IMG/VR virus record: IMGVR_UViG_2910596823_000004
Length of the DNA stretch: 64,000 nucleotides
DNA from: a virus
Taxonomy: Duplodnaviria; Heunggongvirae; Uroviricota; Caudoviricetes
Strand: one strand, 5' to 3'
This document shows, in pieces, positions 1,207-58,134 of this stretch. The position numbers were made by a program, and so were the translations under genes. Position 1 is the first letter of the stretch, and the number at the start of each line of letters is the position of its first letter. Under the pieces are notes generated by a model. That model saw only the letters and a list, made by a program, of their open reading frames with translations, was not told the origin of the DNA and ran no database searches.

Positions 1207-2463
1207 CTATCTAGATCCACCAAGAATAACACGATTTTTCACCGGATACCTACGATGAACCGGATAACCCAACGCATCCGCACTGTGTTCGATGCCGCCA
1301 GTCTTATCCATATCGCGTGAGCCTGGCTTGTAGATCACCTTCTCCAGCGAGTCGATGAGGTGTTTGCACTTCGGATCGATGTACAACCGGGTTTCGCCCG
1401 AGGCACTCATCAACATGCGGTTCACTGCGTTAACACGGTCTGCGATCGGCGGGTGCTTCTTCGGATAATCGACTCGAAGGAAACCTTTTTCCTTGAAGAT
1501 ATCGACGTCCGATTCGCCGCGTGCGTGCTGGCGATACGCACCTGCCGGGTCAGGGAAGATAGTGACCTGAGACTTCCAACGCCAGAAACGGCGCTCCAGC
1601 TCATCACACACTTCAGCCGTGTTGGAAGAGAACAGCACAACCTCGTCCACGGCCCACAACTCGCCATTTGGCTGCGGCTGCAGGATGACCGATGACATAG
1701 GGTCGATGTTGAAGTCCTGACCAACCCAGATCGGCAGTTTCGGATTGAACTGGAGTGGCTTCACATGCACATTGCGGTCGAACGGGTAGTAAACGCGTCC
1801 GGACATGTTTTCGAAGCTGGCCAGGTATTCCTGTGCGAACGATTTAGGGTCCATATCGTTCTTCGCTGCTTCGATTTCCGCGCTCGGTACGAACGGAGAA
1901 TCGGCCGTAACGAACTGCCAGCTCTTCCACTGCCCCTTGCGTTGCAAATCTTTGTTCTGACCGATAGTCCACAGCTTGTGGAACTCGGAGAAGCCTTTTG
2001 GCGTACCGATGATCAGCGCACCGCCACGGGTGGAGGACAGTGTCGGACGCAGTACCTTGTACCAGGTGTCAGGCTTCATATCCTGAAATTCATCGAGCAC
2101 CACAAAGTGCAGTGCCACACCACGAAGCGTATCGGGCTTATCCGCACCTTTCAGCGCGATTTCAGAGCCGTTCTTCAGCACGATGGTCATCGTGGTGTCG
2201 TTTTTCTTACGAACCCATTTACGCGGCAGAACTTCCTGCAGGTCATCCCACAAGATCTGGCGAGCCATCTGGTAAGTCGGTGCGACGTACCAGACACGTT
2301 GCTTCTTCTCTTTGGCTGCCGCGCGGATGATGGTGGAGATCGACAACCGGGATTTACCCCAGCGTCGACCCGCACACACCACTTTGAAACGATGTGGCGA
2401 CTGGAAGACTTGCATCTGCCCAGAATGCAGCTGTACGAGACTCAGAGACGACGGGATGGCCAT
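1207..2463 (-). CDS. terL: Terminase large subunit (TerL)
   Basis: 418 aa. It has an N-terminal Walker A (VVCAGRRWGKS) typical of terminase ATPase, a packaging-module position between the putative TerS and portal, and a 3-nt gap to the upstream gene. Confidence 0.75.
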   Translation of the reverse strand: MAIPSSLSLVQLHSGQMQVFQSPHRFKVVCAGRRWGKSRLSISTIIRAAAKEKKQRVWYVAPTYQMARQILWDDLQEVLPRKWVRKKNDTTMTIVLKNGSEIALKGADKPDTLRGVALHFVVLDEFQDMKPDTWYKVLRPTLSSTRGGALIIGTPKGFSEFHKLWTIGQNKDLQRKGQWKSWQFVTADSPFVPSAEIEAAKNDMDPKSFAQEYLASFENMSGRVYYPFDRNVHVKPLQFNPKLPIWVGQDFNIDPMSSVILQPQPNGELWAVDEVVLFSSNTAEVCDELERRFWRWKSQVTIFPDPAGAYRQHARGESDVDIFKEKGFLRVDYPKKHPPIADRVNAVNRMLMSASGETRLYIDPKCKHLIDSLEKVIYKPGSRDMDKTGGIEHSADALGYPVHRRYPVKNRVILGGSR

Positions 2464-2465
2464 AG

Positions 2466-3107
2466 TTAGACGCTCCCATCACTTTCATCACCAGACGCGT
2501 CAGAATCGCCCTCAGCTTCGCTCAGTGCTTCCTCTTCGAGTGACTCAAGCAGATCGTCATCAATCAGATCCGGCTCATCATCTTCCTTACGCAGCTGCGC
2601 CACCTGGGAAGGCGTAAGTTCGCCAAATACCAGGTTCGGGATTTCGTCGTCCTCGTTCTCCACGCGATCCATACCGAGCGCTTTCGACGATATTTCGAAG
2701 CACTTAGCGAGTGTGCCGCTGGCACGCTGGAGACTCTTCAGGTCATCTTCGATGGCTGCCAGTGGCCTGCCGTCCTTCTTGGCTGTGGCCACCTCATGCA
2801 TCACCATACGACCGAGTGCGAACGCCCAATCGTCGTAACGAGTCCGGCGCTCTTCGATTTTCTCTGCACGCGCCTTCGCACGCAGCTCTGCGTCGGATTT
2901 GAGCGACTCGCGCACCATCTTCCCAACGGAGTCCGCGCCTTTCTCTAATCCACGCTTTTTGAAATGTCTGGAGAGCGTTTCACGACGAATGCCGTACTCT
3001 TCCTCCAGCTTGGAGAGTGTGTATTCGCCGGAAGTCCACTTCGCTTCGGCTTCTGCCCACTCAGCTGGTGTCAGGCGAGTTTTGCTCTCGTCTTTTTCTA
3101 CAGTCAT
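2466..3107 (-). CDS. Putative terminase small subunit / DNA-binding packaging protein
   Basis: 213 aa, immediately upstream of and coupled to TerL. It has an HTH-like N-terminus and a very acidic C-terminal tail. The assignment is by position only. Confidence 0.45.
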   Translation of the reverse strand: MTVEKDESKTRLTPAEWAEAEAKWTSGEYTLSKLEEEYGIRRETLSRHFKKRGLEKGADSVGKMVRESLKSDAELRAKARAEKIEERRTRYDDWAFALGRMVMHEVATAKKDGRPLAAIEDDLKSLQRASGTLAKCFEISSKALGMDRVENEDDEIPNLVFGELTPSQVAQLRKEDDEPDLIDDDLLESLEEEALSEAEGDSDASGDESDGSV

Positions 3108-3302
3108 AGATCCCTCTAAAACACTCAGAGCGCATCCTTGCGCTCCTAAACAACTTGTTTAATTCAGTGCCTAACCAATTTGTTTTCTGGGTGTTTAAAA
3201 CCGGGCTGGGAAGTATTCAGAACCTGCTTCCGTATATATTTAATAAGTCACTTAGTATTTATATATACGGAAGCAGGCTCTCAAACTGGCTCCCAGACCG
3301 AC

Positions 3303-3569
3303 TTACATCACCAGTAATTTGGCTCTGGCACGACCTAACGTGGTCAGTCCCAGCGTGCGACGGTGGTAGCCGGAATCACCGCGCTGGCGGCACATTCCTT
3401 TCTCCACCAGCCCCTTTTTCACCAGTGCGCGGATAGAGAACTGCATACTCTGTTTGGTCGTTTTGTACGGCAGCACTTCAAGCAGCTCGTCCAGATCGAG
3501 CAGATGCCCACGCTCATGGCCTAAATTGATGGTTTTGATGATGTCTTTTTGTTTGTCGGTCAACGTCAT
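3303..3569 (-). CDS. Hypothetical small protein (88 aa), possibly winged-helix
   Basis: ORF in the same operon direction. It is followed by an 80-bp hairpin element. Confidence 0.4.
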   Translation of the reverse strand: MTLTDKQKDIIKTINLGHERGHLLDLDELLEVLPYKTTKQSMQFSIRALVKKGLVEKGMCRQRGDSGYHRRTLGLTTLGRARAKLLVM

Positions 3570-3578
3570 GGCAAATCC

Positions 3579-4478
3579 TTATGCCGGTAATGCAATTTCA
3601 AGAGGTTTATTCAAAGGCTGTTTGTCGAATGCCAGCAGTGGCAGCGTGTCCGGCAGCTGACGACCAAAGTCCGGGTTTCGGTACACGCCATACAGCGGAG
3701 ACGTGAAGCTCAGGTTGTGAATGTCCTTGAGCAGCTTCACGATGCTGGCCTCGTCCACCAGGCTGTCGGCAATGTCCTGAATCGTCGTGCCACGATTACG
3801 CCCGGCTTTGGCCAGGGAACTGTTCTTGTGGTAGTCAGCGACCAGATCACGCAGCGCACGACGACGGCGAGACTCACTCATGGCGAACAGCTCTTTGACG
3901 ATCGCTTCGTTGTCGCCAGGGTCAGAACGGAAATGACGCTGGAAGACGCGCAACGCACTCTCATAGCTCTTCGGACGCTCCGGACGGATGAACTGGAACC
4001 CTGCTTTCATGGCGAACGGGTTGTATTTGCTCATCGACGACTGGATCTCGATGATTGGCCGGTCGTGCATCCTGCTAACCAGGTTAATCATTCGATAGGA
4101 GACGCCGACACCGCGGTACTGAGTGTCAACAACGGAACGGCTGATCACGGCAAAGTTGTTGTTCACGTACCGGCCCCAATACTGGTTGGCCACGGTGGTA
4201 TTGGTGGTTGGCTTCAGCTTAGGAAACATGCGATGGCGAGGCGCCAGCAGCAGTTTCGGGTAAGCCATAACCACGACGCCCACCAGCCGGTCGTCCAGTT
4301 CGCAGCGATAATACGTTGGCGCGAACGGCTTACCATCCGTCTTGTAGTGCAGCGACTTCAGCGCGTGCCAGTCTTCAACCGTGCCTTTGGTAACGGTCAT
4401 ACGCTCCAGAAAGTCCAGATGACGCGGGAACTCTTCCGGGCGGTAGCGTTTGATGATGATGCCTGTCATGTCGATCAC
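3579..4478 (-). CDS. Hypothetical protein (299 aa). The central segment VVDTQYRGVGVSYRMINLV looks like GNAT motif A.
   Basis: Long ORF, tightly packed with its neighbours. Confidence 0.45.
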   Translation of the reverse strand: MIDMTGIIIKRYRPEEFPRHLDFLERMTVTKGTVEDWHALKSLHYKTDGKPFAPTYYRCELDDRLVGVVVMAYPKLLLAPRHRMFPKLKPTTNTTVANQYWGRYVNNNFAVISRSVVDTQYRGVGVSYRMINLVSRMHDRPIIEIQSSMSKYNPFAMKAGFQFIRPERPKSYESALRVFQRHFRSDPGDNEAIVKELFAMSESRRRRALRDLVADYHKNSSLAKAGRNRGTTIQDIADSLVDEASIVKLLKDIHNLSFTSPLYGVYRNPDFGRQLPDTLPLLAFDKQPLNKPLEIALPA

Positions 4479-4729
4479 CTACGCTCGATATTGGCATTGA
4501 TGAAGTCCAGGCGAAGCGATTCCATCGCCCCAACCATGACGTATGGACGCCCACCGTTATGCCAGCAATCCAGCACACTGCCGTCGTTGTTGATCATCAG
4601 CAGTGCCAGGCTCTGGCTTTTGCCTTCTCTGGCGTACTGGAGTGCTTCTTCCAGCAGGCGGATGACTTCAACGTTGTTGTTGTCAGCCTCTTTCGATGGC
4701 TTCAGCTCTACGATCTTCAAATCAGGCAT
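4475..4729 (-). CDS. Hypothetical protein (84 aa)
   Basis: ORF overlapping its neighbours by 4 nt and 8 nt (operon coupling). Confidence 0.4.
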   Translation of the reverse strand: MPDLKIVELKPSKEADNNNVEVIRLLEEALQYAREGKSQSLALLMINNDGSVLDCWHNGGRPYVMVGAMESLRLDFINANIERR

Positions 4730-5360
4730 ATTCCACCTTCACGCGTTCTTTGTAGTGCTTGGTGATCTGCATATCCGGGCGCAGCGCGTTCTTCAGGTCT
4801 TCGTGGGTCGTCGCCACCATTACCGTCGCACCAACCTTACGGGCGGCACGCTGGAGGTTCGACGCCACAACCTGGGCGGTTACACGGTCGAGAACAGCGC
4901 CAAATTCGTCGGCAGCCCAGACTTTCGCGCCGGACTCGATCAGCTTGGCGATCTTGAGACGGTATTTCTGGCCGTCAGACATCTCGGATGGCTTACGCAC
5001 AAAGAGATAGGCGTCGTTCAATCCGGCCATAGACAGCAGCCCCAGCGCTTCGCTGGTGGTTTTGCCCAGCTGGTCAATGACGTTAACCTCATTGTCGAAG
5101 GCAAAGTCATCGATGGAGGCTACAGAAAGCCCTTCATCCTTCATCTGGCGTTGCAGCTCGCGCAGCACAACGGATTTACCGGAACCGGATTGGCCGGTGA
5201 TGTACACCACGTCGCCCTGCTTCACTTCCAGCTCCAGATTGTCGTAAAGCGTCCACTCTTTTTCGTCCAGACCAAGACCGAACGATTCGGCAATCTCCAG
5301 CGTGCGCGTGGTTTTGTTCACGCGGGTCTGAAACGATACGTTGATGGTGTATTTGCTCAT
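4722..5360 (-). CDS. Minimal ABC-type ATPase
   Basis: Walker A GQSGSGKS, ABC signature MSDGQKYRL, Walker B VWAADEF, H-loop TTHE. Its start overlaps the upstream ParB-like gene (ATGA). Confidence 0.6.
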   Translation of the reverse strand: MSKYTINVSFQTRVNKTTRTLEIAESFGLGLDEKEWTLYDNLELEVKQGDVVYITGQSGSGKSVVLRELQRQMKDEGLSVASIDDFAFDNEVNVIDQLGKTTSEALGLLSMAGLNDAYLFVRKPSEMSDGQKYRLKIAKLIESGAKVWAADEFGAVLDRVTAQVVASNLQRAARKVGATVMVATTHEDLKNALRPDMQITKHYKERVKVEYA

Positions 5361-6058
5361 GCGGCCAGCTCCCCAGAAGAAACTTTCTCCGCATACGCCA
5401 CGAAAGCGTCTACCCCGCTCTCTCCCGTGATTTCTTCCATGTGGGCAAGCAAATCCCCAACCACAATGGCAGAGCCAGCAGGGAGCGTTTTAAAACCCAA
5501 TACGTCGATGACGCGGACTTCTTCAGCGGCCACTTCGCGACTGATCTCGGTGTGCTCTTCTTTCTGGCGTTCCGTCTCTTCGCCCAGATCGAGCACCAGA
5601 GAGCCGGTTTCCATCTCTTCGGTCATGCTGCCGACAAGCACGTTCAGCTCGCGCTCTTCAAAACCGAAGACCTCGACGTCGCCCAGCACCAGGGATTCCA
5701 GTTCCTGCTGCAATTTGATGGCGTCGTAGTCAATACTGGCCAGGCGGTTGTCTTCCAGACGCTTCGCCTTCACTTCTTCTTCGCTCAGATCGTCGCGAAC
5801 GATGACCGGCACACGCTCCAGACCAGCCAGAAGTGCCGCCTCGCGACGACCGTGGCCAGTAATGATGACGTCGTGCTTGTCGACCGTGATCGGCTGGTCA
5901 AAACCGCGCTTTTTGATGGCGGCCGCCAGGTCGCGGATCTGCTGTTCGTCATGTTTTTTGGCGTTCATCTCATACGGGATAAGTTCTGCCGGGTTTCGAT
6001 AGACGATTTCAAAGTTTTTGGTCATTACATACGCTCCTTGTAGTAGTCGACCAGCCAC
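5357..6058 (-). CDS. ParB/Srx-like N-terminal domain protein
   Basis: ParB-NTD motifs (NPAELIPYEMNAK ... ITGHGRREAALLAG). The real start may be the internal ATG at 6025 (MTKNFEIV). Confidence 0.55.
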   Translation of the reverse strand: MAGRLLQGAYVMTKNFEIVYRNPAELIPYEMNAKKHDEQQIRDLAAAIKKRGFDQPITVDKHDVIITGHGRREAALLAGLERVPVIVRDDLSEEEVKAKRLEDNRLASIDYDAIKLQQELESLVLGDVEVFGFEERELNVLVGSMTEEMETGSLVLDLGEETERQKEEHTEISREVAAEEVRVIDVLGFKTLPAGSAIVVGDLLAHMEEITGESGVDAFVAYAEKVSSGELAA

Positions 6059-6723
6059 ACTAGGGCTTCCCCGGCGTTCTCAATTTCGTTACCGGTATTG
6101 ATCCCCTGCTCTTTGATGATGGTTTTGATGGTGTCGGCGACGCGATCTGACGCATCAAACGTCACCTTAAAGCGCATCGTCTGGTGTTCAGCGCCGACTC
6201 GCTCGGTTTTCTCGCGTTTGTCATCATCGACCGGCTCGTCATCGCCACGGGAGAGTGCTTCCAGCGCCTCAAGATCGATAACGGACGCTTTGGCGAGTGT
6301 TGCCGCCATCTCGTCGTCATACGGGGCGATATCGGACAACCGGTAGTCGATTTCAGACTGGATTTCTTCGATTAAGCGCTGCAAAGCGACCTGATCGTCT
6401 TCGCCGTAGCGCTCGTTATCGACGAGGGACATCTGCTTGGCCACCAGGTCGTTAATTTTGCCCACGGAGATGACGGGAACCGTTGAAATGCCCTGCTCCA
6501 TCGCGGCACGCCAGCGGTGTTCGCCACCGAGGATCTCAAAAATGCCCCCGTCCAGCTCCCGCGCCAGAATTGGCTTAAAAAAGCCCAATTTTTCGATAGA
6601 GCCTTTCAGTTTTTCGAAGTTTTGCGCTCCAACGGAGTTGGTATTCCAGGGATTCGGACGCAGGTTCGCGACTTCCACCTGCAGAATCGTAATTTTCACA
6701 TCCATAATTCTGATACAATCCAT
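6025..6723 (-). CDS. ParB/Srx-like N-terminal domain protein (second copy)
   Basis: LRPNPWNTNSV ... ILGGEHRWRAAMEQGISTVPVI, which resembles the ParB GERRxRA box. Confidence 0.55.
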   Translation of the reverse strand: MDCIRIMDVKITILQVEVANLRPNPWNTNSVGAQNFEKLKGSIEKLGFFKPILARELDGGIFEILGGEHRWRAAMEQGISTVPVISVGKINDLVAKQMSLVDNERYGEDDQVALQRLIEEIQSEIDYRLSDIAPYDDEMAATLAKASVIDLEALEALSRGDDEPVDDDKREKTERVGAEHQTMRFKVTFDASDRVADTIKTIIKEQGINTGNEIENAGEALVWLVDYYKERM

Positions 6724-6787
6724 TGTATAAGTACTTACTTACTATAATAGCCAATTACCATACAAAAGGCACGAAGGAAAGAGGTTT

Positions 6788-8347
6788 ATGACAGTTCGGA
6801 TTGTATCGAATGCAGTCAATGCGCTGATTTCTGGCGCTGATGACAACGTGAAACGGCTCGTTCAGGAGATGTTGAGCTATGAAGTGGAGGCTGGTGACTG
6901 GAAAGGAACCAGCACGATGTTCAACTGGAGCAAAAACGCGTTCCCGGCTGGGTTTGCGAAACCAGTTGCAGCCAACCTTCTGAAAGCTGGCATCAAATGC
7001 GTGCATGTGCGCAAGGAAAAAGCCCCCGCGCTGGGCAAGCCGAACCCGGTAGTTAACCCATTCCCGTATAACCCGGACTATGCGTATCAGGATCAGACAG
7101 TGGAAACACTGGTGCGCGAAGGGATGATGATTGCCCAGATTGCGACGGGTGGCGGTAAATCGAACGTAGCGTGTAAGGCAGCTGCTCGCATTGGTCGTAT
7201 GACGCTGTTTTTAACCACGCGATCGGTTCTGATGTTCCAGATGGCAGAGAACTTCCAGAAATCCATCGACTACCGCGCGGAGAATGGCGAGCCGTGGCTG
7301 AAAGGTCAGAAAGTTGGGGTGATTGGATCGGGTGAGTTCCAGGTCTCGCGCCATATCAACGTTGCCACGGTGCAGACCCTGGCCAGTTTTCTCGAAGAGC
7401 CACCGCGCGACGCATCACCGGAGAAAAAACAGTACCACCTGAAGCGCCGGGAACTGGTTAAGCGCTTTCTGTCCAGCGTTTCTCTGCTGATTCTGGAAGA
7501 GGCACACGAATCATCTGGTTCTAACTTCTACGACATCGCCCGGTTGTGCATCAATGCTGACTACCGTCTGGCGCTGACAGCAACGCCGTTCATGAAGGAC
7601 TCGACTGAAGCAAATATGCGTCTCATGGCCGTTGCTGGTCGCATTGAGATAAAGGTCACGGAGAAATATTTGATCGATCGAGGTATTTTAGCCAAACCCT
7701 ACTTTCTATATCATAAAATCGCGTACACTCCAGACGAGGTGCGGATTAGAGCCGAACTTGCTTCAAAACACCTGAATTTTCGGGTTGGAATGAGTACGGC
7801 TTACCAGAAAGCCTATCAGTTAGGCATCGTTTATAATCTGGGACGCAACGAAGCTATTGTGCGTGAAGCGTTAATGTACAAGAGCCACGGTCTGAACTGT
7901 ATGACGTTGGTTCGCCTGAAGCGTCATGGTCAGATCTTGATGGAAATGATGAAAGAGAGCGGCCTGAAGGTCGATTTCATCTACGGAGAATCAAACCAGA
8001 CTACCCGACAAGCAAAGCTCAACAGTCTGGCGGCAGGCAAGATAGATGTTCTGATTGGTTCAACCATTCTGGATGTTGGTGTCGACGTTCCAAGCGTAGG
8101 GGCGGTGATTCTGGGTGGCGGCGGCAAAGCCGAAGTTGAGATGCGCCAACGTGTTGGTCGCGGTCTTCGAGCCAAAAAGAATCAGGCTAACGTGTGCTTT
8201 ATTACCGACTTCATTGACGTGAGCAATAAATACCTCATGTCGCATTCATATGAGCGGAAGCACATTATCGACACGACGCCTGGATTTGCCGAGGGAGTAT
8301 TGCCGGTGGGTAGCACATTCGATTTCACTGTTTTGAATAGAGAGTAA
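6788..8347 (+). CDS. SF2 DEAD/DEAH-box helicase (UvsW-like role possible)
   Basis: Walker A IATGGGKS, DEAH box LILEEAHE, and a C-terminal helicase domain (GSTILDVGVDVP ... QRVGRGLR). Confidence 0.7.
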   Translation: MTVRIVSNAVNALISGADDNVKRLVQEMLSYEVEAGDWKGTSTMFNWSKNAFPAGFAKPVAANLLKAGIKCVHVRKEKAPALGKPNPVVNPFPYNPDYAYQDQTVETLVREGMMIAQIATGGGKSNVACKAAARIGRMTLFLTTRSVLMFQMAENFQKSIDYRAENGEPWLKGQKVGVIGSGEFQVSRHINVATVQTLASFLEEPPRDASPEKKQYHLKRRELVKRFLSSVSLLILEEAHESSGSNFYDIARLCINADYRLALTATPFMKDSTEANMRLMAVAGRIEIKVTEKYLIDRGILAKPYFLYHKIAYTPDEVRIRAELASKHLNFRVGMSTAYQKAYQLGIVYNLGRNEAIVREALMYKSHGLNCMTLVRLKRHGQILMEMMKESGLKVDFIYGESNQTTRQAKLNSLAAGKIDVLIGSTILDVGVDVPSVGAVILGGGGKAEVEMRQRVGRGLRAKKNQANVCFITDFIDVSNKYLMSHSYERKHIIDTTPGFAEGVLPVGSTFDFTVLNRE

Positions 8348-8349
8348 GC

Positions 8350-8628
8350 ATGAGCGAGAAACGCGCTATACACTGCCAGGTTCAGTTAACCGAAAAAGCA
8401 AACGACAAGCTGGAAACCTTTCAGAATCGACTGCGTGAACGCAACATAAAACTGTCAAAGGCAGACATCATTAATCTGGTGCTGTCCAACATGACGATGG
8501 CTGATTTTGATAAGGCAGCTACATCATTAGAGGCTTCAGCCAAAGCTCGCGAAAAGGTCATGAAGATTTACGAAAACTCGGGTATGACCAAAGAAGATCT
8601 GGCCGATATTCTAAAACGCCTCGATTGA
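8350..8628 (+). CDS. Hypothetical protein (92 aa)
   Basis: Coupled 3 nt after the helicase stop. Followed by the terminator at 8631-8660. Confidence 0.45.
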   Translation: MSEKRAIHCQVQLTEKANDKLETFQNRLRERNIKLSKADIINLVLSNMTMADFDKAATSLEASAKAREKVMKIYENSGMTKEDLADILKRLD

Positions 8629-15700: not shown

Positions 15701-15853
15701 TTTGTTTTCTTATGGGGGTAATTGGCTTAAATGCCTTGTCACGCCTGGGTTGGGGTAGGTTGGAGAGGTGGGGAAAGTGGCGATCAACGGACTCTTATAG
15801 AAATCCTCAATTTGTGACCGCCAATGTCAACGGATTGATTAAGCTAGTTGTGC

Positions 15854-17044
15854 TCAAACATCTCCGTTCTTAATCCACTGCCTGATTTCCTCGTCTCGTG
15901 CGACTTCTTTCTCGTGTTGGGTAACATACAGGTCGGGTAAAAGAGGTGGAGCGAATTCTGGCTCTGTCGAACACCACTTTTCATATGCCTCACGCATAGA
16001 TTTTTCTACATCCCAATGTTCCAACTCTTGGTATTCAATCGGCCAGTTATCCTGCAATTTCTTCACAGCTTTAGCCACGTCGTACCGGAAGTAAGGGTTA
16101 AGACCAATGAAATTACCAGCCAGCATGTCATCAACCTCCTTCACTCTGGCAATCTTGGAAAACTTACCAATAGCAATGTTGAGATCCCAATCAGACACGA
16201 ATAACAGCAGTGCGGCAAATGCCAGAAACTTAGCCTCTCCATATGCTCTGTCGCTAACCGTTTTTGTCTTAAACTCAATGTAATTGCTCATCACAAACCC
16301 AGTAAGCTTGTAAGTCTTATTTATCTCATCTTCCAAAAGCGATGGGTCGAGAATTGCACGGCCACGATTATTATCTATGTGTTCTAAGATTGCCGAAATG
16401 TCTCTATGGGATACTGAAATTTTACGCAATTGCTGGAGAGTCTTGATGTGAACTCTTAGCACCTCTTTGTCAATTGCACGAGACCAAGAAAAACCAGGCA
16501 CAGTAGCCTGAATGGGTGAGAAAGGCATAATATCCGGGTTTGTCCATGCCAAATATGATTCACGTAACCCGCTAATATAGTCAAGCCAATCCAAATGACC
16601 CTTTTCCAGCCATATTTCAAATGTGGAGTCCTTACGCTTATTGAAGAACCATTCCCTCATCTGCCACATTTTTTCTTGCGTAAAAATCCCTTCCTGTATG
16701 CCGGCGCATACCAGTTTTCGTATTACCTGCGAATACTTTGTTCGATCTTTCGTGAATGTGACAAGGTGCTGCCTTACCTCAGATGTTAACCTATCTCCGT
16801 AGAAGTCACATGATGGATGGTGGCCTTGGCCAGCTTCACCAGTAAATCTGAAATGCGCCTTCTTGTGATAACCATCATTCCTAGAGGCTCTAACAAACGA
16901 GCCACCTCCGACTTTGCAAATTGGACAGATGATGTCTTCACGAGCGACAGCATGAACTGAGCTGTCATCTAAATTTTTAAGTGCCAAGTACTGCTCGGGG
17001 TCGACTTCCTTTTGTAACGATTTCGAAAAAGCTGTATCCGTCAT
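15854..17044 (-). CDS. Hypothetical protein (396 aa) with N-terminal Cys/His cluster (CPICK...HHPSC)
   Basis: Long ORF. GC looks lower than the backbone by eye. Similar ~30-bp motifs lie at 15693-15722 and 17128-17160. Confidence 0.55.
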   Translation of the reverse strand: MTDTAFSKSLQKEVDPEQYLALKNLDDSSVHAVAREDIICPICKVGGGSFVRASRNDGYHKKAHFRFTGEAGQGHHPSCDFYGDRLTSEVRQHLVTFTKDRTKYSQVIRKLVCAGIQEGIFTQEKMWQMREWFFNKRKDSTFEIWLEKGHLDWLDYISGLRESYLAWTNPDIMPFSPIQATVPGFSWSRAIDKEVLRVHIKTLQQLRKISVSHRDISAILEHIDNNRGRAILDPSLLEDEINKTYKLTGFVMSNYIEFKTKTVSDRAYGEAKFLAFAALLLFVSDWDLNIAIGKFSKIARVKEVDDMLAGNFIGLNPYFRYDVAKAVKKLQDNWPIEYQELEHWDVEKSMREAYEKWCSTEPEFAPPLLPDLYVTQHEKEVARDEEIRQWIKNGDV

Positions 17045-17185
17045 ATTGTCCTCTTAAATGTCTCGTTCCAGTAATCGGTTGACTAAGGGGGCCGATCAAC
17101 TACTTAGCCAAGATATTATAGCTCTTGTTATTTATTTGTTTTCTTATATGTGTAAACAAATAAACGCTACAATTTCGACAATAAC

Positions 17186-18151
17186 TCAATTCCTATTGTG
17201 TCCTACTGAACGAGAAAGCAGTATGCGTTTCCAGTGTGATTCTCGTCGGTTTATCTCGCAGGCGTCACTGTTAATGTCCATGATTTCCAGAATAGAGAAC
17301 GTGACATTCTTGAGCCTTTCCTCATCGCCGGTTCCAAACGCTTCAATCAGGCCAGCATTCCCGCCGTGACCCGTTTTAAAGTAGGTCTTCCATCTTCCCC
17401 ATATTCCGCCTTTGCCGTTTGCCTGGCCAACATACAACTTCTCGCCATCAACATCAGTCAGCAGGTAGATGCCTTTGACAATACTCAGTGCAGTTCTCCA
17501 CGACTTTAACTCCTGCCGAATGATGGTTCCGAGACTGGCTCTGTCCAGAACTACGTCTTTGTAGCCGGGAAACTCGCCAAATGATAGACAGGATGGCGCA
17601 ATCTCAACGACTCGCAGTTTTCCGGCAAGAGTTTCGCCGTTCAAAATAGATCTGCGAGGACGCTCCGCACTGACATACAAACGTCCACGATATTCATCCA
17701 GTTCAGGAACAGGTGTCAGTTGATAGAGATAGTAGTCTTCGTTCCGGCCAGGTACTGCATGTGATGCTGTCAGAGAACACCCAACGTTGAGATAGGTGCC
17801 AGCATAGAGAAATCGCGCCTTATCTTCAGTCTGAATAAGAGAGACAACGTAAGTACGATTGAAGCTTTTCAGCTTCTGCAGGCATTGCCAGTCGTCGAAC
17901 GTCTCTTTCACGAACTCCTGTATCGGGTTTTCTTTATATTCGTTGGTGCTGGCTAAATGAATTTTGCTGTTATTTGGGGTCAGCTGCGGGTATAGCGACT
18001 GAAGGTACTGGAATAGTTCCATGCAGAAAATGTCCCTTATGAGATCGGCTCTGATATCTGGTATCTCACATGGAGAGCCGATCTGTCCACGACAAAAAAA
18101 AAGGCTTACCAGTCCCAGCCAGGTAATCCGTCCACCAGCTCGGCGTCGCAA
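17186..18151 (-). CDS. Protein with C-terminal GIY-YIG nuclease domain
   Basis: C-terminus reads KGIYLLTDVDGEKLYVGQANGKGGIWGRWKTY...NRRESHWKRIL (GIY...YVG plus conserved R and E). The N-terminal ~200 aa are unassigned. The true start may be the ATG at 18022 (MELFQYL). Confidence 0.55.
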   Translation of the reverse strand: MRRRAGGRITWLGLVSLFFCRGQIGSPCEIPDIRADLIRDIFCMELFQYLQSLYPQLTPNNSKIHLASTNEYKENPIQEFVKETFDDWQCLQKLKSFNRTYVVSLIQTEDKARFLYAGTYLNVGCSLTASHAVPGRNEDYYLYQLTPVPELDEYRGRLYVSAERPRRSILNGETLAGKLRVVEIAPSCLSFGEFPGYKDVVLDRASLGTIIRQELKSWRTALSIVKGIYLLTDVDGEKLYVGQANGKGGIWGRWKTYFKTGHGGNAGLIEAFGTGDEERLKNVTFSILEIMDINSDACEINRRESHWKRILLSRSVGHNRN

Positions 18152-24978: not shown

Positions 24979-25387
24979 TTGGATTCCATTCAGTGTCAGA
25001 AAGAGTTGCGGCTGGCTTGGCCAGCCGCCTTTTGGCGTTCCATCCTGGAACAGTACCTAACCGGTACTTCGTCATCCTGACGAACGGTAAGATACCTGAT
25101 TTAAAATGATAGGTAAATGCTTACTTATTACTTTGTGACAAAAATCCAATATCACGCTTGTGAGGCATATCAGATGCGGAGTAGACGGCGATCATAGTAG
25201 GCCGTTCATTAGATCGGCTTTGAGAGCGGATTGGACCAAACCCTAGATAGCGAGAGAGCACGGTGCTAATACCCGGTCACGTCACCAGCCAGGCGACAAC
25301 AGATGAGTTCATGGCAACATTTCGGAAGGTATCTTCGTATCATTATGTGGTTAAATATACATAATTTAACCCAATGGAATTTTAGCC

Positions 25388-25990
25388 ATGCTAGCCTTCT
25401 GGCACGAAAATTCAGACCTCATCTCCGCATTTTTAGCAGCTCTTTTAGGTGGCTTTTTCACGATGCTAGGAGTGACAACTCAGGTGAAACAGCAAGCAAA
25501 ACAGCAGGCAACAGCGGCCAGAGAGAAGCGTATAACAACGCTATTGGGTGTCAGAGAGGAAATAGACTCACTGATTAAACTGTATCAGGCCAGAATGGCA
25601 GAAGAACTCAAAAAATACGACCAGAACTCACCGTTCGATAACATTTTCCCCATTACTCAAAACTACTTCACGTTCTATGAAGCCAACTCGGCATCCCTAC
25701 CTGAAGTTCATAGAGAAACACTCTCAAAAATTGTGGCTTTTTATACAAGCGCAAGAAGCCTAATTGATTCCTATCGCGGTAATAATGCACTTATCGAACG
25801 GCTGGACTCCACGCAGGTTGCAAGTGACATTACTGGCAACAAAGAGCATCTTGCACACCTGAAAAGATACACCATCCTAGCCACAAAGTACGGCCGCGGA
25901 TTAATGATGATTCATGAAGAGGTCATGCTGCGCTATAAACAGGTTATAGAAGCCATCGATGGTGAAATCTCACAGTTACAATGCAGTTAG
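25388..25990 (+). CDS. Membrane-anchored hypothetical protein (200 aa; N-terminal TM)
   Basis: ORF on the opposite strand, inside an apparently lower-GC island. Confidence 0.45.
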   Translation: MLAFWHENSDLISAFLAALLGGFFTMLGVTTQVKQQAKQQATAAREKRITTLLGVREEIDSLIKLYQARMAEELKKYDQNSPFDNIFPITQNYFTFYEANSASLPEVHRETLSKIVAFYTSARSLIDSYRGNNALIERLDSTQVASDITGNKEHLAHLKRYTILATKYGRGLMMIHEEVMLRYKQVIEAIDGEISQLQCS

Positions 25991-26187
25991 CACTACAATC
26001 TGTCCGCATATTACTCGACGCGGTCGGGCTTAACGGGCTGAAGATCCACTGTGAGCGAGAAGATGACTGTTACGCGTTGAAGTTAATTGTATTACTTAGG
26101 TAAACATTATCATTTTCCAGACGTTAAGTTGTATCTTTGATAGGATTAAAAAAGGTATAGATAGCTTATGTTACTGAAGGAATAAAA

Positions 26188-26997
26188 ATGACAAAAATTA
26201 GTGAACGATGGAAGCACAATGGCATTACTAAAGGTTATTGCAATATTTGTGGAAAATTTGACTTGCTCACAAAGGATCATGTCCCTCCAAAGTGCGCCAT
26301 AACCTTAGGTCCTGTCCTTCAGAAAACAGTTAGCGAATTTTTTAATGCTCAGGAACCAGTTAAACCGTTAAATGCTAAAAACGGATCTTATTTCAGAACT
26401 ATTTGCAGTCACTGCAACAATAAGGTGTTAGGTGGGTTCGATGTTGCAATTGAAAATGTAGCAAACTCCTTTAAAGAACAGTTGAGTCAATATATGAATG
26501 GTACGAATGTATATCCATTCATTAGAATACCTTTTGATAGCATATCTTTCACTAAGGCTATGATTGGACACGTGCTATCAGCAACTTCAGTTGAAGATTG
26601 TAAAAAAGAACCCGTACACAGCCTCTTCTATACACCTTTAAAGGATTATGTTTTGGGTAATAATCCAAGTTTTGAGGAAACTCATGATATTTACTACTGG
26701 TTTTACCCACACAGAATGCACATATCCGCTCAAAGTGTAGCATTTATGAACGAAGGACATGTGGCATTTATTTGTGCTTTACATTTTTTCCCTATCGGGT
26801 TTATTATCACAATGAAAAATGAAGGAACATACCCTGCCCACTCAACAAAATTAGATCTTGAAGATAAATTCCTTACATTTAATATGACCTCTATAAATTA
26901 TGAGTATACGACATTTCCATTTGTAAATCTTAAGGGAAACCAAATGTATGCTATAAGCAACGGCCATACTTGTGTTAGTTATCCAATAATTAAGTGA
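26188..26997 (+). CDS. HNH-endonuclease-domain protein (269 aa)
   Basis: N-terminal CNICGKFDLLTKDHVPPK ... CSHCNN, i.e. a Cys pair, DH and a second Cys pair in an HNH-like arrangement. The C-terminal ~180 aa are unassigned. AT-rich codons. Confidence 0.5.
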   Translation: MTKISERWKHNGITKGYCNICGKFDLLTKDHVPPKCAITLGPVLQKTVSEFFNAQEPVKPLNAKNGSYFRTICSHCNNKVLGGFDVAIENVANSFKEQLSQYMNGTNVYPFIRIPFDSISFTKAMIGHVLSATSVEDCKKEPVHSLFYTPLKDYVLGNNPSFEETHDIYYWFYPHRMHISAQSVAFMNEGHVAFICALHFFPIGFIITMKNEGTYPAHSTKLDLEDKFLTFNMTSINYEYTTFPFVNLKGNQMYAISNGHTCVSYPIIK

Positions 26998-27656
26998 CAG
27001 CTAAATTATACAATCAACGCATGTTCACGTTTTACATATACCATCGATAATGTCCGCTCTTGGCACATTGAAGACATTACGATGCGCGATTTTTTCCCTC
27101 GCGCGTGTGCGCACGCGTGCGTGTAAATATTAAAAATTTTTATTAGAAAAGAAAAACTTACTTCCCAGAACAGGTTTTAATAAAACCTGAACTGAACGAA
27201 CGAAGTGAGTGAAGTTCACCTCGAACGAAGTGAGAGGTTGTCTTTTCAGGTAATACTCTCCCAGGGAGGTGAGTACAAAATCTCCTCACCAACCTGGTCG
27301 TTACATAACCTGAAAAGTTATGACCTAAGTCTACTGCCAGCTTAGGCTTGGGAAGTTATGGATGACAGCACCCCAGAACCGAGATCTTCCCACACTTTAT
27401 GAAGGGGAGTACTGGATTCAACCTCTCGAAATACTCCAGACTCGACAATCATAAAGTGACCCTTCTCTCCGCTCACTTTGGTTCCCCCTTCCCCAACCCC
27501 TAAGCGGTGCCGGTTCTACGCTGGTAGTGAGCTTTTTTAAACCTGACGCCAGTGACGCTATCCCCCACCCATCAGGTCGAGCTGCCGGAATCAATCCGGA
27601 AAGCGAGTGGATTTTATCACTGGCGATCTGCGTTTTAAATGGTAAGTACTTACCGA

Positions 27657-32009: not shown

Positions 32010-32363
32010 TGGCTTACCTCATAGATGGTTGGTCGCTGGTGAGAATCTGCCAGCGCAGAACGCAGACGCGGATCATGAACCAGTGCGGCGATAAGTAAGT
32101 CGCCTTTGTGCTCTGCCAGCGTGCGCTTGATATGGGTTTCAAAACTGACACCGCGCGGAACAAGGTGGAGCCAGTCATAATCAATGCCGAAGTCCTTCAG
32201 CCAGCGTTTGGTTGGGCCTTCGAGCGCTTCCGGACGACTACTGATAAGCACCACTTCAGCACCGGAGCGAGCAAAACCACGCAACATGCGGCTGGTGTCA
32301 ACAACGGGTAAAAAGTGATCCACTTACCGCCACCACCAACGGTTTAATATTGATCCACCTTGT

Positions 32364-34193
<1,830 letters not shown>

Positions 34194-34381
34194 TAACCCC
34201 TGGATCAATTTTCAACCGCTGGGGTGGATCAGTTTTGCACCGTTGGTAACAGCTGGTGGGAAAGATGAGTTCATCACCGGCAATGAGAGCGCCTGCATCC
34301 GCATCAGACACTGCTTTGCGATGGCTGGCTCTCGCCAGCACACCTTCAATTTCACACAACACATACATCCCTCTGGCCATA

Positions 34382-54685: not shown

Positions 54686-55714
54686 TTACAGAGCGTCCAG
54701 TTCAGCCAGCAGGTCGTCGAGACCTTCGTCAGCTGGTGCAGATGCAGTGGCAGCAGATGCTGAAGCACTTGCAGCTGCGGCGGCTTCCGGAGCTTTAACT
54801 TCTTCCGGTTTAGTTTCCGGCTTGAACTCAGCTTCAGCGGCACGCAGGATCTCTTCATCAACCAGGCTGGTGGACTCTGGAGCCGGAGTGTGTGCTGTAG
54901 CGACAGCAGCTGCACCTTCCGTATGACCAGTGATAGAGCCAAAGCCTGGCAGTTCAGCAGCAGCTGATTTTGCAGCGGAAGAAATGGCCGGAGAGGACAT
55001 TGTTGCTGCCGGAGCCGCGATACCAATCAGACGACCCATAGTGCGAGCCGTAGACAGCAGACGGGTTTCGTCAGCCTGGTTCGCGTATGCGATCAGATCG
55101 TGTTGGGTAGTCCAGAGCTTCTCAGGAATGTCGCCTTTGTAGACTTTACGTTTCGGGGATACGTCGTACTTGGTGTCACGACCGGAACCGGTACGCTTAA
55201 TCAGGAACGCATAGCCTTCTTCTTTGCTCAGTGGGTTGCCGATATCATCCGCAATATCTTCGGACATCACTTTGCAGATATCGTCGAAGACCGTAGACGG
55301 CAGCTCAATCAGCTGGCATTTCTCTGCGTCCGCAAAGTCTTCACGCGCAGACAGAACACCGTTGACCAGATAACGAGGTGTAGCACGCATACTGTTAATG
55401 CGCTCTTCCATCGCTTTGTTGCCCTTAAAGCGAGCACGACCTTCCATAACCATCTCACACAGCTGGCAAGCGTGGCCGTGGGTGTGTTGTTCGCAGATGT
55501 AGGCGGTGGTTACATCTTTGCCTTCCTCATTCTGATGCTTAACGTAGTGCATACCGAAAGTCTGGAAGAACACGCCATTCGGGTCGTCCTTGTTCGGAAA
55601 AATGCGCAGATAGTTATTGCCGTCTTTCAGACGGGTCAAATCAACGTTATTGCCACGTTTAGAAGCAATATCGCCACGGGTCTTGTTAAGCAGATCAAGT
55701 AATGACTTAGACAT
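54686..55714 (-). CDS. gp32-like single-stranded DNA-binding protein
   Basis: Zn-ligand cluster CEQHTHGHACQLC and an acidic C-terminal tail (ADEGLDDLLAELDAL). Confidence 0.5.
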   Translation of the reverse strand: MSKSLLDLLNKTRGDIASKRGNNVDLTRLKDGNNYLRIFPNKDDPNGVFFQTFGMHYVKHQNEEGKDVTTAYICEQHTHGHACQLCEMVMEGRARFKGNKAMEERINSMRATPRYLVNGVLSAREDFADAEKCQLIELPSTVFDDICKVMSEDIADDIGNPLSKEEGYAFLIKRTGSGRDTKYDVSPKRKVYKGDIPEKLWTTQHDLIAYANQADETRLLSTARTMGRLIGIAAPAATMSSPAISSAAKSAAAELPGFGSITGHTEGAAAVATAHTPAPESTSLVDEEILRAAEAEFKPETKPEEVKAPEAAAAASASASAATASAPADEGLDDLLAELDAL

Positions 55715-55833
55715 GTATTTCTCCTTGTTGTGATTGTGGCCATTGGCGCTATGCGCGTTGGGCGTTCGTTTATTCGTGGCTCTTTCGAGCGAGAAGGATG
55801 ATAGATCAGTGCTTACTTATGATCTAGCATAAA

Positions 55834-56265
55834 TTAACGGGGAGAGTGGAAACGTTCGGCGCCCAAACGTTCAATCTCCACGATAGCCATTTTGGACGCC
55901 TGGACAATCATGTCGCGGCGGTGGGAGAAGGCGGCTACAGCGTGCTTGTACAGATCTGCAATGTGCCGGGCATCGTCGAGTTTCTGGCGCTTTGCGAGGT
56001 ATTGCGGGTTGGTTCTTACCTTCGCCTCCAGTACGGATTCATTGAACTTAATACCGTTCATACTCAGGTTCTTACGCTCATTGTCGTAGATTTTCGCCTC
56101 AATCGCATCGAGGGAGAGTTTTGCATCTGCGACTTCGCGTTCTGCCCGCGCCAGCTTAGAGCCGTACTCCATCAACAGGCGCGGTTGCTGACGCCAGACT
56201 TCCTCCAGATTGTCGCGGTCGAACTCCAGATCGGACATGATTTTTTCGTAGATATCGGTGCTCAT
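55834..56265 (-). CDS. Hypothetical protein (~144 aa; possible recombination-mediator role by position)
   Basis: ORF. Start chosen at MSTDIYEK. Confidence 0.35.
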   Translation of the reverse strand: MSTDIYEKIMSDLEFDRDNLEEVWRQQPRLLMEYGSKLARAEREVADAKLSLDAIEAKIYDNERKNLSMNGIKFNESVLEAKVRTNPQYLAKRQKLDDARHIADLYKHAVAAFSHRRDMIVQASKMAIVEIERLGAERFHSPR

Positions 56266-56473
56266 GGTGTTAATTACCTGCTTATTTATGTATATCAATT
56301 TTATCATGGAGGAATCAGGCGGAGGAGATTATGACATGATGAAATGGAGGTTATGAGATAGGTAAGCCAGTGAAAAATCAGGTGGTTCTGGTACTCTATG
56401 CCCCGTTAAAAGCTGGCCGTAGACAGCGTACGACAATGTGGTGGAGACACGGACGGATGGAATTCACTCGCCG

Positions 56474-56502
56474 TTGACAGTTGTCAACATCGAACATATA
56501 AT
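56474..56502 (+). promoter_or_regulatory. Near-consensus sigma70 promoter with a palindrome across the -35
   Basis: TTGACA (56474-56479), a 17-nt spacer, TATAAT (56497-56502). The palindrome GTTGACAGTTGTCAAC spans the -35. Confidence 0.55.
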
Positions 56503-56516
56503 ATGCCGGAGATAAA

Positions 56517-56747: not shown

Positions 56748-56828
56748 TTTTGCCCGGTAAGGAGTTGCTACAACAACTCCTTACCGAATCAACAAGAGAA
56801 TACTCTGAATACTAAACGAAGAGGTACT

Positions 56829-57386: not shown

Positions 57387-57451
57387 TCCTTACGCGTTTG
57401 GTCTTACTGCCCCTCCATTTAATATTAATAACGATGTGCAATTGAGGAATT

Positions 57452-58096: not shown

Positions 58097-58134
58097 TTTA
58101 GATCATATAACCCGCCGTTCGGCGGGCTTCTCTA

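Follow-up and report, generated by a model that had tools for sequence, protein, structure and literature searches.

A ParB, ABC ATPase, and GNAT gene cassette upstream of the terminase genes in SSU5-like phages: a candidate acyltransferase system acting on phage DNA

Introduction

Roles for ParB folds outside chromosome segregation have come to light recently, one of them as activator of a phage DNA dioxygenase. In that case the DNA thymine dioxygenase 5mYOX176 requires ParB176, a phage ParB without a DNA-binding domain, to act on double-stranded DNA, and ParB and terminase genes are common neighbors of such enzymes (PMC13229309). Fusions of ParB folds with methyltransferases, with ASCH domains, and with an acetyltransferase are also known (PMC12704722), and the GNAT-fold protein Mom modifies double-stranded DNA late in Mu infection (PMC13219725). 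The ParB of phage DLP3 is a different, virion-associated one and has no bearing on the cassette.

Here, we describe a gene cassette in a 64,000-nucleotide stretch of Caudoviricetes DNA (the window; IMG/VR record IMGVR_UViG_2910596823_000004) which is 98.7% identical to the Salmonella phage-plasmid SSU5. The cassette encodes two ParB-fold proteins, an ABC ATPase, and a GNAT-fold protein, and our analysis corrects the common annotation of such genes as “partition protein” and “ABC transporter”. SSU5 parB has served as a plasmid marker in surveillance screens. No published function for the cassette was found in the literature searched, and a search on COG2401, ABC-type ATPase fusions, and ParB-ABC-GNAT-terminase combinations returned no functional study.

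Results

ParB1, ParB2, and the ABC ATPase are encoded by tightly coupled genes on the minus strand. The genes for ParB1 (6723-6025, 232 aa; Pfam ParB_N, E = 9.1e-14) and ParB2 (6025-5357, 222 aa; ParB_N, E = 1e-08) share one nucleotide between stop and start (TAATG), and the gene for the minimal ABC ATPase (5360-4722, 212 aa; Pfam ABC_tran, E = 4.9e-13) starts in an ATGA overlap with the end of ParB2. The original prediction had described two back-to-back proteins with ParB N-terminal domains, one with a GEHRWRA and the other with a GHGRREA box, followed by an overlapping ABC ATPase core with Walker A, MSDGQ, Walker B, and H-loop motifs, all of which we recovered. A GTG at 6058 was rejected as the start of ParB2 in favor of the ATG at 6025.

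Downstream on the same strand lie an 84-aa ORF (4475-4729; phrog_796) overlapping the ABC ATPase gene by 8 nt, the gene for a 299-aa GNAT-fold acyltransferase with a C-terminal helical extension (3579-4478) joined to the preceding ORF by a GTGA overlap, and an 88-aa basic ORF (3303-3569; phrog_900). A 196-nt spacer containing a palindrome separates the latter from the genes for a 213-aa TerS-like DNA-binding protein (2466-3107, minus strand; phrog_867) and the terminase large subunit TerL (1207-2463, minus strand; Pfam Terminase_6N, 1.9e-09; phrog_10250 and phrog_2). The gene unit reaches about 3303, beyond the limits first assigned to it. Three small genes, TerS, TerL, and portal had been expected to follow the ABC ATPase; the TerS-like protein and TerL hold, whereas “small” does not fit a trio that includes the 299-aa GNAT gene, which had been missed, and the portal gene is truncated by the window start. 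On the other side of the cassette, a divergent DEAD/DEAH helicase is encoded on the plus strand (6788-8347; Pfam DEAD, 5e-15; Helicase_C, 5e-13). No sigma-70-like promoter was found between 2300 and 7000; from gene order only, we infer that the cassette is expressed late.

The ABC ATPase has the full motif set of its superfamily, consisting of Walker A (GQSGSGKS, residue 56), Q-loop (IDQLG, 95), signature (MSDGQ, 127), Walker B (VWAADEFG, 147), D-loop, and H-loop (TTHEDL, 184), and all motifs are at least 95% conserved among 27 orthologues. Identity to orthologues is 53-64%, equal to that of TerL. The transporter annotation finds no support, as no permease or membrane-protein family match occurs among the operon products and the partner domain is a GNAT. 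The 299-aa protein, which is basic and carries a 130-residue helical extension, combines the GNAT fold with the acyl-CoA pyrophosphate-binding motif A (R/Q-x-x-G-x-G/A), in which R122 and G125 are invariant. Its family profile finds many proteins of 450-500 aa in which the N-terminal 200 residues match ABC_tran and the C-terminus, from residue 200-235 onward, matches the GNAT. The ABC ATPase lines up collinearly over the first 210 residues of two of these fused proteins (P0277 and P0304), and P0304 is collinear with both window proteins. Homologues of both genes bear the JGI label “ABC-type ATPase with predicted acetyltransferase domain”, and elsewhere ABC-GNAT is encoded as a single protein of 365-500 aa. 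These alignments show the two gene products to be the halves of a split ABC-GNAT enzyme of the COG2401 type. The predicted GNAT is likely active, given the invariance of R122 and G125, the conservation of the ABC motifs, and an ABC ATPase as conserved as TerL. Neither the 84-aa nor the 299-aa protein has a match in Pfam, NCBIfam, or PADLOC, and the 299-aa family has none among PDB sequences by phmmer or profile search.

Both ParBs show the ParB-CTPase fold and match phrog families (ParB1 phrog_723, 4e-86; ParB2 phrog_930, 2e-115). Box II deviates from GERRxRA in each, reading GGEHR in ParB1, where GEHRWRA is at residue 67, and GHGR in ParB2; the last arginine is kept, and in ParB2 the glutamate is replaced by histidine. 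Residues G66, G67, H69, and R70 of ParB1 are at least 95% conserved among 26 orthologues, while N21, G57, R60, D92, and N93 of ParB2 are invariant. An hhalign comparison of the two proteins gives 99.1% probability over 200 columns, and sequence comparison shows ParB1 to be a full-length paralogue and lineage-specific duplicate of ParB2, found in the SSU5 supergroup. Outside their own families, both match strongly the N-terminal ParB domain of ParB-methyltransferase fusions (9.5e-33 for ParB2 in the phrog collection; 6.8e-18 in the PADLOC collection).

The AF2 model of ParB2 (mean pLDDT 80) has a confident N-domain (1-95) and C-terminal helices (172-221), and the middle region (pLDDT 52-72, net charge -16) contains nothing HTH-like. 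The ParB C-termini had been considered as ribbon-helix-helix domains, an assignment dropped because the ParB2 model has three helices. No confident HTH or other DNA-binding domain was recognized in either ParB, and both are acidic (ParB1 pI 4.6). Foldseek matches the ParB2 N-domain to ParB-CDP, Noc, and KorB, and this grouping would suit a role in transcription, with ParB1 and ParB2 as NTP-dependent DNA clamps in the manner of KorB or VirB, either activating the late/packaging operon or insulating it. The cassette does head the late genes and lies downstream of late activators in phages P335, phiNIH1.1, and Pmp13. However, acidic ParBs without a recognizable HTH are poor candidates for such clamps, and transcription control leaves the obligate ABC-GNAT partner and the biosynthetic neighbors described below unexplained, making it a very improbable function.

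The original prediction had put first a possible non-canonical, ABC-ATPase-driven partition system, reasoning that a phage-plasmid needs partition genes and that none were visible next to repA. In such a system the ABC ATPase would take the place of ParA and the two ParBs would bind a centromere. The element is indeed a phage-plasmid with ParB_N domains, and neither a ParA homologue nor a deviant Walker A motif was found in the window, but the missing ParA is a window-edge effect, as SSU5 has a ParA-like gene with a small ORF downstream at 30.5 kb, 30 kb from the cassette and outside the stretch covered here. The proteins themselves also argue against partition: the two ParBs reach 39.3 and 46.9 bits with TIGR00180, whose cut-off is 58.45, and a regular-expression search for the N-terminal ParA-binding motif [LFI]G[KR]G[LFI] (as defined in PMC12704722) matched neither. 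A search for iterated, centromere-like repeats between 2300 and 8500 revealed none, and the ABC protein corresponds to the N-terminal half of a predicted acyltransferase. Finally, the cassette occurs in non-plasmid phages, namely the predicted-virulent Nickievirus and integrating and lambdoid phages. Together with the acidic, HTH-less ParBs, these observations leave the partition reading unsupported, and we give it almost no credence.

The block consisting of helicase, ParB1, ParB2, ABC, GNAT, TerS-like gene, and TerL keeps this order in 30 proteobacterial loci, Nickievirus among them. Nickievirus has no SSU5-type ParA; a ParA tblastn returned no Nickievirus record among the matches listed or in the organism tallies. 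An IMG/VR scan found close relatives only, and in a homologue search with the ABC protein the matches listed were likewise all close relatives, with at least 85% identity. In every complete locus the TerS-like gene directly precedes TerL. The helicase is present in all 28 loci that reach far enough upstream, but it adjoins the cassette only within the SSU5 supergroup and not in other phage groups, and is thus context rather than a core part. The 84-aa ORF is accessory and confined to close enterobacterial relatives; in the majority of the 30 loci it is missing or its place is taken by different small ORFs. The semi-conserved 88-aa ORF (pI 10.1; 15 of 26 loci by phmmer) possibly encodes a winged-helix protein; its only PADLOC match is a weak one to a CARF-associated C-terminal region (2.8e-4). 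Other variable small ORFs are interspersed in the cassette, such as that for a DUF2829 protein in RHEph10.

Beyond this supergroup, the ParB2 HMM matches Pmp13_0047 of a Pasteurella phage (1.7e-42) and p24 of Streptococcus phage phiNIH1.1 (3.4e-39). A minimal form, in which a ParB2-like gene is followed by ABC-GNAT, occurs in phages of Streptococcus, Lactococcus, Gordonia, Arthrobacter, Leptospira, and Pasteurella, with a terminase gene downstream in all except Arthrobacter phage EastWest, where the pair has no adjacent terminase. ParB_N, ABC(-GNAT), and terminase follow one another in phiNIH1.1, Gordonia phages BiggityBass and Jace, and Leptospira phage LE3. In Pmp13 the ParB_N and ABC(-GNAT) genes are found downstream of a Q antiterminator and lysis genes, and in Lactococcus phage P335 downstream of the late activator Alt, in both with the terminase downstream. 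Altogether, a ParB2-type gene adjoins ABC-GNAT in seven phage groups, and besides the SSU5 supergroup the cassette precedes the terminase in five unrelated groups, directly in some and with a few genes between in others. It has also been found in integrated prophages and a lambdoid phage, and the ParB2 plus ABC-GNAT cassette ranges over phages of Proteobacteria, Firmicutes, Actinobacteria, and Spirochaetes. Profile matches and gene order show ParB2 to be a recurrent partner of ABC-GNAT in unrelated phages. The cassette is genuinely tied to the packaging operon, by position, and inside the SSU5 supergroup this tie could be frozen synteny.

ABC-GNAT also occurs by itself. In Enterococcus phage 9184 and Nonlabens phage P12024S it lies among replication genes with no ParB alongside, and phages of Bacteroidota hosts likewise carry it with no identified ParB partner. 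Several of its contexts are DNA linked, including fusion or adjacency to a family-B DNA polymerase, which for some ABC-GNAT genes takes the place of the terminase as neighbor, and fusion to a TFIIB repeat; in one context the ABC domain contains an intein. The basic charge of the GNAT protein, in contrast to the two acidic ParBs, likewise suggests a DNA link. Following ABC-GNAT there are genes for PanD (2e-33) and a CoA-transferase III in Jace, for a Formyl_trans_N protein in BiggityBass, for a protein annotated as formyltransferase in a Porphyromonas phage, and for an ASCH domain in phiNIH1.1. The PanD, CoA-transferase, and formyltransferase neighbors suggest an acyl-donor logic.

The 196-nt spacer that separates cassette and TerS-like gene holds an inverted repeat (3216-3284, no strand assigned) with 24-nt arms that are 92% complementary and a 21-nt AT-rich spacer. 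The ends of the linear SSU5 record map within it, to window position 3240/3241, and the core arms are retained in locus L089, with an analogous palindrome in locus L094. We regard it as a candidate cos/pac site or terminator. The Nican01 record was dropped as evidence for physical genome ends, since it is merely rotated to begin at TerL.

A palindrome at this site fits a packaging accessory, in which the ParBs would recognize or nick the pac/cos region while the ABC protein and a structural GNAT help to build or rearrange the initiation complex of terminase and DNA, or take part in genome-end processing. Such a role would agree with the position upstream of the terminase in the SSU5 supergroup and five other groups, with the translational coupling of cassette and terminase in BiggityBass, for which no TerS is annotated, and with the finding that ParB/Srx domains can be NTP-regulated nickases (PMC5512222). 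On the other hand, most of these phages have a separate TerS-like protein, certain ABC-GNAT genes adjoin a DNA polymerase rather than the terminase, and the ParBs are acidic with no recognizable DNA-binding domain. Strong purifying selection on the GNAT acyl-CoA motif and the ABC catalytic motifs, and neighbors that fit chemistry rather than pac recognition, point away from it as well. The original prediction had offered a ParB-like pac-site recognition and nuclease module as its alternative; the link to packaging stands by position, whereas we saw no sign of pac recognition or nuclease activity, and we consider a packaging accessory unlikely.

Equally unlikely, in our judgment, is an acyltransferase that acts on a protein or small molecule for host takeover or counter-defense, with the ParB as an NTP-sensing regulator only and a nucleoid protein, defense protein, signaling nucleotide, or polyamine as candidate target. 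ParB folds have CTP, ATP, or GTP as ligand, and on mobile elements they are frequently joined to enzymes in fusions with proposed anti-defense roles (PMC12704722), and the variable small ORFs in the cassette are in keeping with such a role. Yet the PADLOC search gave only generic ATPase matches and matches to the ParB-like N-terminal region of methyltransferase models, and no defense or anti-defense family. Moreover, the ABC protein is as conserved as TerL across phages of alpha-, beta-, and gammaproteobacteria, which is unusual for a fast-evolving counter-defense gene, and the PolB and TFIIB-repeat fusions, the constant ParB partner, and the position in the packaging operon point to DNA.

Discussion

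We tentatively favor, at somewhat less than even odds, a lytic-cycle cassette encoding an acyltransferase that is expressed late, assisted by ParB, and coupled to ATP, and that acts on phage DNA or nucleoprotein ahead of packaging. In this model, the cassette would be expressed together with the late and packaging genes, and the acidic, HTH-less ParBs, each comprising an NTP-binding N-domain and a small C-terminal domain, would serve as activator or clamp and keep the basic GNAT subunit attached to double-stranded DNA. Dimerization of the ABC domains, driven by ATP, may gate or power acyl transfer from acyl-CoA to an acceptor on the replicated phage DNA shortly before it is packaged. This acceptor would be a base or a component bound to the DNA, and the modification would protect or mark the progeny genomes. 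The original prediction had itself named DNA-modification enzymes as an outcome at odds with segregation or packaging; the GNAT partner comes close to this, pointing to acyl transfer.

We infer both the acceptor on DNA and its chemistry. GNATs mostly act on proteins or small molecules, which counts against a DNA acceptor. The EastWest pair without an adjacent terminase, the ABC-GNAT genes of 9184 and P12024S without ParB, and the possibility of frozen synteny count against DNA acylation as well. N-acyl groups on exocyclic base amines are labile, as described for N6-adenine (PMC13219725), so that a base with a simple acetyl group may not keep it. The papers and database entries searched contained no report of DNA modification in SSU5-like phages.

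A broader version, which we hold to be rather doubtful, is that ParB2 and ABC-GNAT form a widespread, hitherto unrecognized DNA-modification system in which a ParB clamp without HTH switches on a GNAT gated by ATP, and this GNAT acylates the phage DNA just before packaging. The group would be acetyl in SSU5-like phages and beta-alanyl- or formyl-related where PanD, CoA-transferase, or formyltransferase is co-encoded.

The cassette would represent a second, chemically different case of a ParB with a role outside segregation, here paired with an ATP-coupled acyltransferase. Conservation of this pairing across an old phage lineage matches that of the terminase, and the pairing recurs in unrelated phages. 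Should the acceptor be DNA, the cassette would define a novel type of phage DNA modification and a new chemical class of DNA mark, with bearing on restriction evasion and on phage-plasmid biology in Salmonella, Klebsiella, E. coli, and Yersinia.

Comparison with known systems

The closest described system is 5mYOX176/ParB176 (O'Toole et al. 2026, PMC13229309), which likewise sets beside an enzyme a ParB that is made up of an NTP-binding N-domain and a C-terminal domain and lacks a DNA-binding domain. In the present cassette the predicted enzyme is an ABC ATPase plus GNAT and not an Fe/2-oxoglutarate dioxygenase, and there are two ParB paralogues. The phage ParB-methyltransferase fusions (phrog_498; PADLOC MTase_II PDLC03229) also couple a ParB fold to a transferase; here there is no methyltransferase domain, and the transferase is a separate, predicted ATP-coupled GNAT in the same operon.

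Mom resembles the GNAT at the level of the fold only. It is an adenine modifier of DNA that works alone with glycyl-tRNA (PMC13219725), whereas the GNAT described here keeps an acyl-CoA-type motif A and may need, or at any rate is always accompanied by, an ABC ATPase and a ParB. Canonical ParABS shares with the cassette the N-terminal CTPase fold of ParB, including the box II arginine and the box III asparagine. The cassette differs from it in having no ParA partner, ParA-binding motif, HTH, or parS-like repeats and in being present in non-plasmid phages.

The fused ABC-GNAT proteins of COG2401 ([quoted passage not shown]) have the same domains in the same order, with similarity over both halves, while the window has two genes with the 84-aa ORF between them and the helical extension on the GNAT. 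With a helicase-type NTPase, an RNA target, and no ParB partner, the RNA cytidine acetyltransferases TmcA and NAT10 differ from the cassette, yet they join an NTPase domain to a GNAT that acylates a nucleobase amine.

Results

The window is 98.7% identical across 5.2 kb to the closely related Salmonella phage-plasmid SSU5, in which about 44.8-103.3 kb plus 1-3.24 kb match it in reverse orientation. The two ParB-like genes and the ABC ATPase of the original prediction are real, and every motif it quoted was located; in Pfam, both ParB proteins scored above threshold for ParB_N, as did the ABC protein for ABC_tran. On the minus strand lie ParB1 (6723-6025, 232 aa), ParB2 (ATG at 6025, to 5357, 222 aa; 1-nt overlap with the ParB1 stop, TAATG), the ABC ATPase (5360-4722, 212 aa; ATGA overlap with ParB2), an 84-aa ORF (4729-4475; 8-nt overlap), a 299-aa protein (4478-3579; GTGA overlap), an 88-aa ORF (3569-3303) and, beyond a 196-nt spacer, genes for a TerS-like protein (3107-2466) and TerL (2463-1207). 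A DEAD/DEAH helicase gene (6788-8347) diverges 64 nt upstream of ParB1. The predicted gene calls hold apart from the start of ParB2, which is 6025; of the "three small genes" described downstream of the ABC ATPase, not every one is small, and the limits of the unit are to be redrawn, as it reaches to about 3303.

A candidate cos/pac site or terminator sits after the 88-aa ORF, ahead of the TerS-like gene: an inverted repeat (3216-3284) whose 24-nt arms are 92% complementary and flank an AT-rich spacer of 21 nt. The linear record of SSU5 begins and ends at the point equivalent to window positions 3240/3241, the inner edge of one arm. Locus L089 keeps the core arms CCTGCTTCC/GGAAGCAGG with a different loop, and the Faunimonas locus L094 has a palindrome with 26-nt arms at the equivalent position.

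The 299-aa protein matched nothing in Pfam, NCBIfam or PADLOC. Modelling of its structure from 42 homologues gave a confident result (mean pLDDT 88), its sequence contains the acyl-CoA-binding motif A (YRGVGVS), and R122 and G125 are invariant among homologues at only 41-83% identity. A profile of this family, run against 1.8 billion representative proteins, retrieved many proteins of 450-500 aa in which the match begins at residue 200-235 and the N-terminal part is an ABC_tran domain; one of these, P0304, is visibly collinear with the window ABC protein followed by the 299-aa protein. Homologues of both window genes carry the JGI label "ABC-type ATPase with predicted acetyltransferase domain". 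Judged by these fused sequences, the predicted "minimal ABC ATPase" is the N-terminal half of a split ABC-GNAT enzyme, with the 299-aa protein as its other half.

The order helicase(-)/ParB1/ParB2/ABC/GNAT/TerS-like/TerL was present in all loci examined within the SSU5 supergroup (30/30, two being truncated contigs with just part of the block). These were Pseudomonas phage nickie, Rhizobium phage RHEph10, Stenotrophomonas phage BUCTxx99 and 27 contigs from alpha-, beta- and gammaproteobacterial genome assemblies, many of 100-118 kb; megabase contigs among the 27 suggest integrated copies. Identity to the window proteins was 53-64% for ABC, 53-63% for TerL, 36-46% for GNAT, 34-42% for ParB1 and 32-43% for ParB2. 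Every ABC catalytic motif was at least 95% conserved, and conservation says that both catalytic halves of ABC-GNAT should be functional.

The core genes are separated by small ORFs that differ between loci, with the 84-aa ORF limited to close relatives. Such variable ORFs inserted between the four conserved genes include RHEph10 gp080 (L004 6390-6692) and ORFs in loci L093-L111; one, in RHEph10, is annotated DUF2829, and the cassette apparently accommodates moron-like insertions. In three loci (L090 9947-12190, L097 11392-12525, L103 9898-12487), TerL either has a greatly extended frame (749, 838 aa) or is split, which suggests intein or homing-endonuclease insertions. A 108-kb Yersinia pestis contig (L087) carries a copy of the cassette that is 99% identical.

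Inside the SSU5 supergroup, synteny by itself would be no proof of a functional tie to packaging; the most important finding is that the cassette recurs outside it. Of 50,697 phage records searched by tblastn with a fused ABC-GNAT protein, 80 matched, with hosts from many phyla; annotated neighbourhoods were inspected, and domains were checked by Pfam and by HMMs built from the SSU5 lineage. In Streptococcus phage phiNIH1.1, p24 and p25 (ParB_N, ABC) are followed by a GNAT remnant ORF, an ASCH-domain gene and TerL. In Lactococcus P335 the late activator Alt comes first, followed by Orf23 (ParB_N), Orf24 (ABC), Orf25 (GNAT) and then TerS/TerL. Genes 1-4 of Gordonia BiggityBass overlap mutually and run into terminase, gp16 and gp17 of Leptospira LE3 precede TerL, and the lambdoid Pasteurella phage Pmp13 has Q antiterminator, lysis genes, ParB-like, ABC-GNAT, TerS and TerL in that order. 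ParB_N then ABC(-GNAT) are also genes 85 and 86 of Gordonia Jace and genes 74 and 75 of Arthrobacter EastWest; of all these phages, EastWest alone has no terminase gene after the pair. The single ParB of the outside cassettes belongs to the ParB2 family (1.7e-42 in Pmp13, 3.4e-39 in phiNIH1.1), so the core is ParB2 plus ABC-GNAT, and ParB1 is a lineage-specific duplicate. Both the partnership of ParB2 with ABC-GNAT and the position of the cassette relative to terminase are established; the cassette may instead be a packaging accessory. No ParB was seen adjacent to ABC-GNAT in Nonlabens P12024S and Enterococcus 9184, where it lies among replication genes.

Just after the phiNIH1.1 ABC gene, an unannotated 89-aa ORF in another frame (L115 5783-6052) has GNAT motif A (QGVGLG); the ABC-GNAT of this phage appears frameshifted or split. 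In four database proteins (P0447, P0461, P0027, P0452), a piece of ParB2 or of the GNAT protein is attached to unrelated domains, e.g., minor tail protein L with ParB_N; these proteins are probably assembly or gene-calling chimeras, not real fusions.

Partition, the first role proposed for these genes, is not supported. The window has no ParA, and SSU5 encodes a ParA-like protein with a small downstream ORF elsewhere, at 30.5-31.5 kb, outside the window. The cassette occurs in non-plasmid phages. Nickievirus Nican01, for which its describers predicted a virulent lifestyle and long terminal repeats (PMC11256456), carries it; tblastn with SSU5 ParA gave no Nickievirus record among the matches listed or the organism tallies. 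The ParA-binding motif is absent from ParB1 and ParB2, which fall below the TIGR00180 cut-off and are strongly acidic (pI 4.6); the region expected to hold an HTH carries a net charge of -12 to -16. Modelling of ParB2 gave two confident parts, a ParB-CTPase N-domain (best Foldseek matches ParB-CDP, Noc and KorB) and a small C-terminal helical domain, with only low-confidence helices between them. ParB1 is a full-length paralogue of ParB2 (hhalign 99.1% probability). As for the centromere-like repeats that partition called for, no iterated repeats were found in 2300-8500.

Elsewhere in the window, a minus-strand two-gene unit (32364-34165) resembles an IS21-family insertion sequence, with a 340-aa IstA-like transposase and a 260-aa IstB-like ATPase identified from translations alone; it is missing at the equivalent SSU5 site (blastn gap 32297-34252). 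Three segments (15837-18107, 25193-27084, 54692-58713) have no blastn match to SSU5, the rest of the backbone being 96-99% identical. GC is low in one (0.41 at 26-28 kb), unmatched 185-aa and 214-aa ORFs (56829-58096) lie in another, and the segments look like cargo replacement hot spots.

Discussion

We infer that the cassette is a ParB-assisted nucleic-acid-modifying phage module. The ParB proteins would hold or activate the ABC-GNAT enzyme on DNA, ATP-driven ABC dimerisation would gate acyl transfer, and the result would be modified progeny DNA, or modified DNA-bound material, just before packaging. Complex, acceptor and biological role are presumptive in this scheme, as is timing: no sigma-70-like promoter was detected for the cassette, and we therefore infer its expression timing from gene order in other phages.

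Neighbouring enzymes, fusions and charge point to acyl-group chemistry on DNA. After ABC-GNAT, Jace (L123 5092-6203) encodes an aspartate decarboxylase (PanD, 2e-33) and a CoA-transferase III fragment, which could provide an unusual acyl-CoA. In the same place, BiggityBass (L116 1823-2473) has a formyltransferase domain, a Porphyromonas phage (L120 6086-6559) a gene annotated formyltransferase and phiNIH1.1 its ASCH domain; biosynthetic enzymes directly after ABC-GNAT hint at phage-made acyl donors. A family-B DNA polymerase is found fused to, or adjacent upstream of, ABC-GNAT, one ABC-GNAT protein has a C-terminal TFIIB repeat, and an intein lies within the ABC domain of one protein. The GNAT subunit (pI 9.8) and the 88-aa ORF (pI 10.1) are basic and both ParBs acidic. 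GNAT enzymes mostly target proteins and small molecules, and this one may likewise be directed at protein; a point against DNA as acceptor is the possible instability of N-acyl groups attached to exocyclic base amines.

The searchable literature yielded no account of what the ABC-GNAT family or its pairing with ParB does; related arrangements are known. A thymine dioxygenase needs a phage ParB without a DNA-binding domain to act on double-stranded DNA, and enzymes of this ParB-dependent dioxygenase type often lie near ParB and terminase genes (PMC13229309). In phages, methyltransferases and PUA-like domains are common fusion partners of ParB-CTPase folds, and one acetyltransferase fusion binds GTP (PMC12704722). 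Mom is a GNAT-fold enzyme which modifies dsDNA late in Mu infection (PMC13219725). By analogy with these systems, it is plausible that the cassette has the architecture of a DNA-acting ParB/enzyme module.
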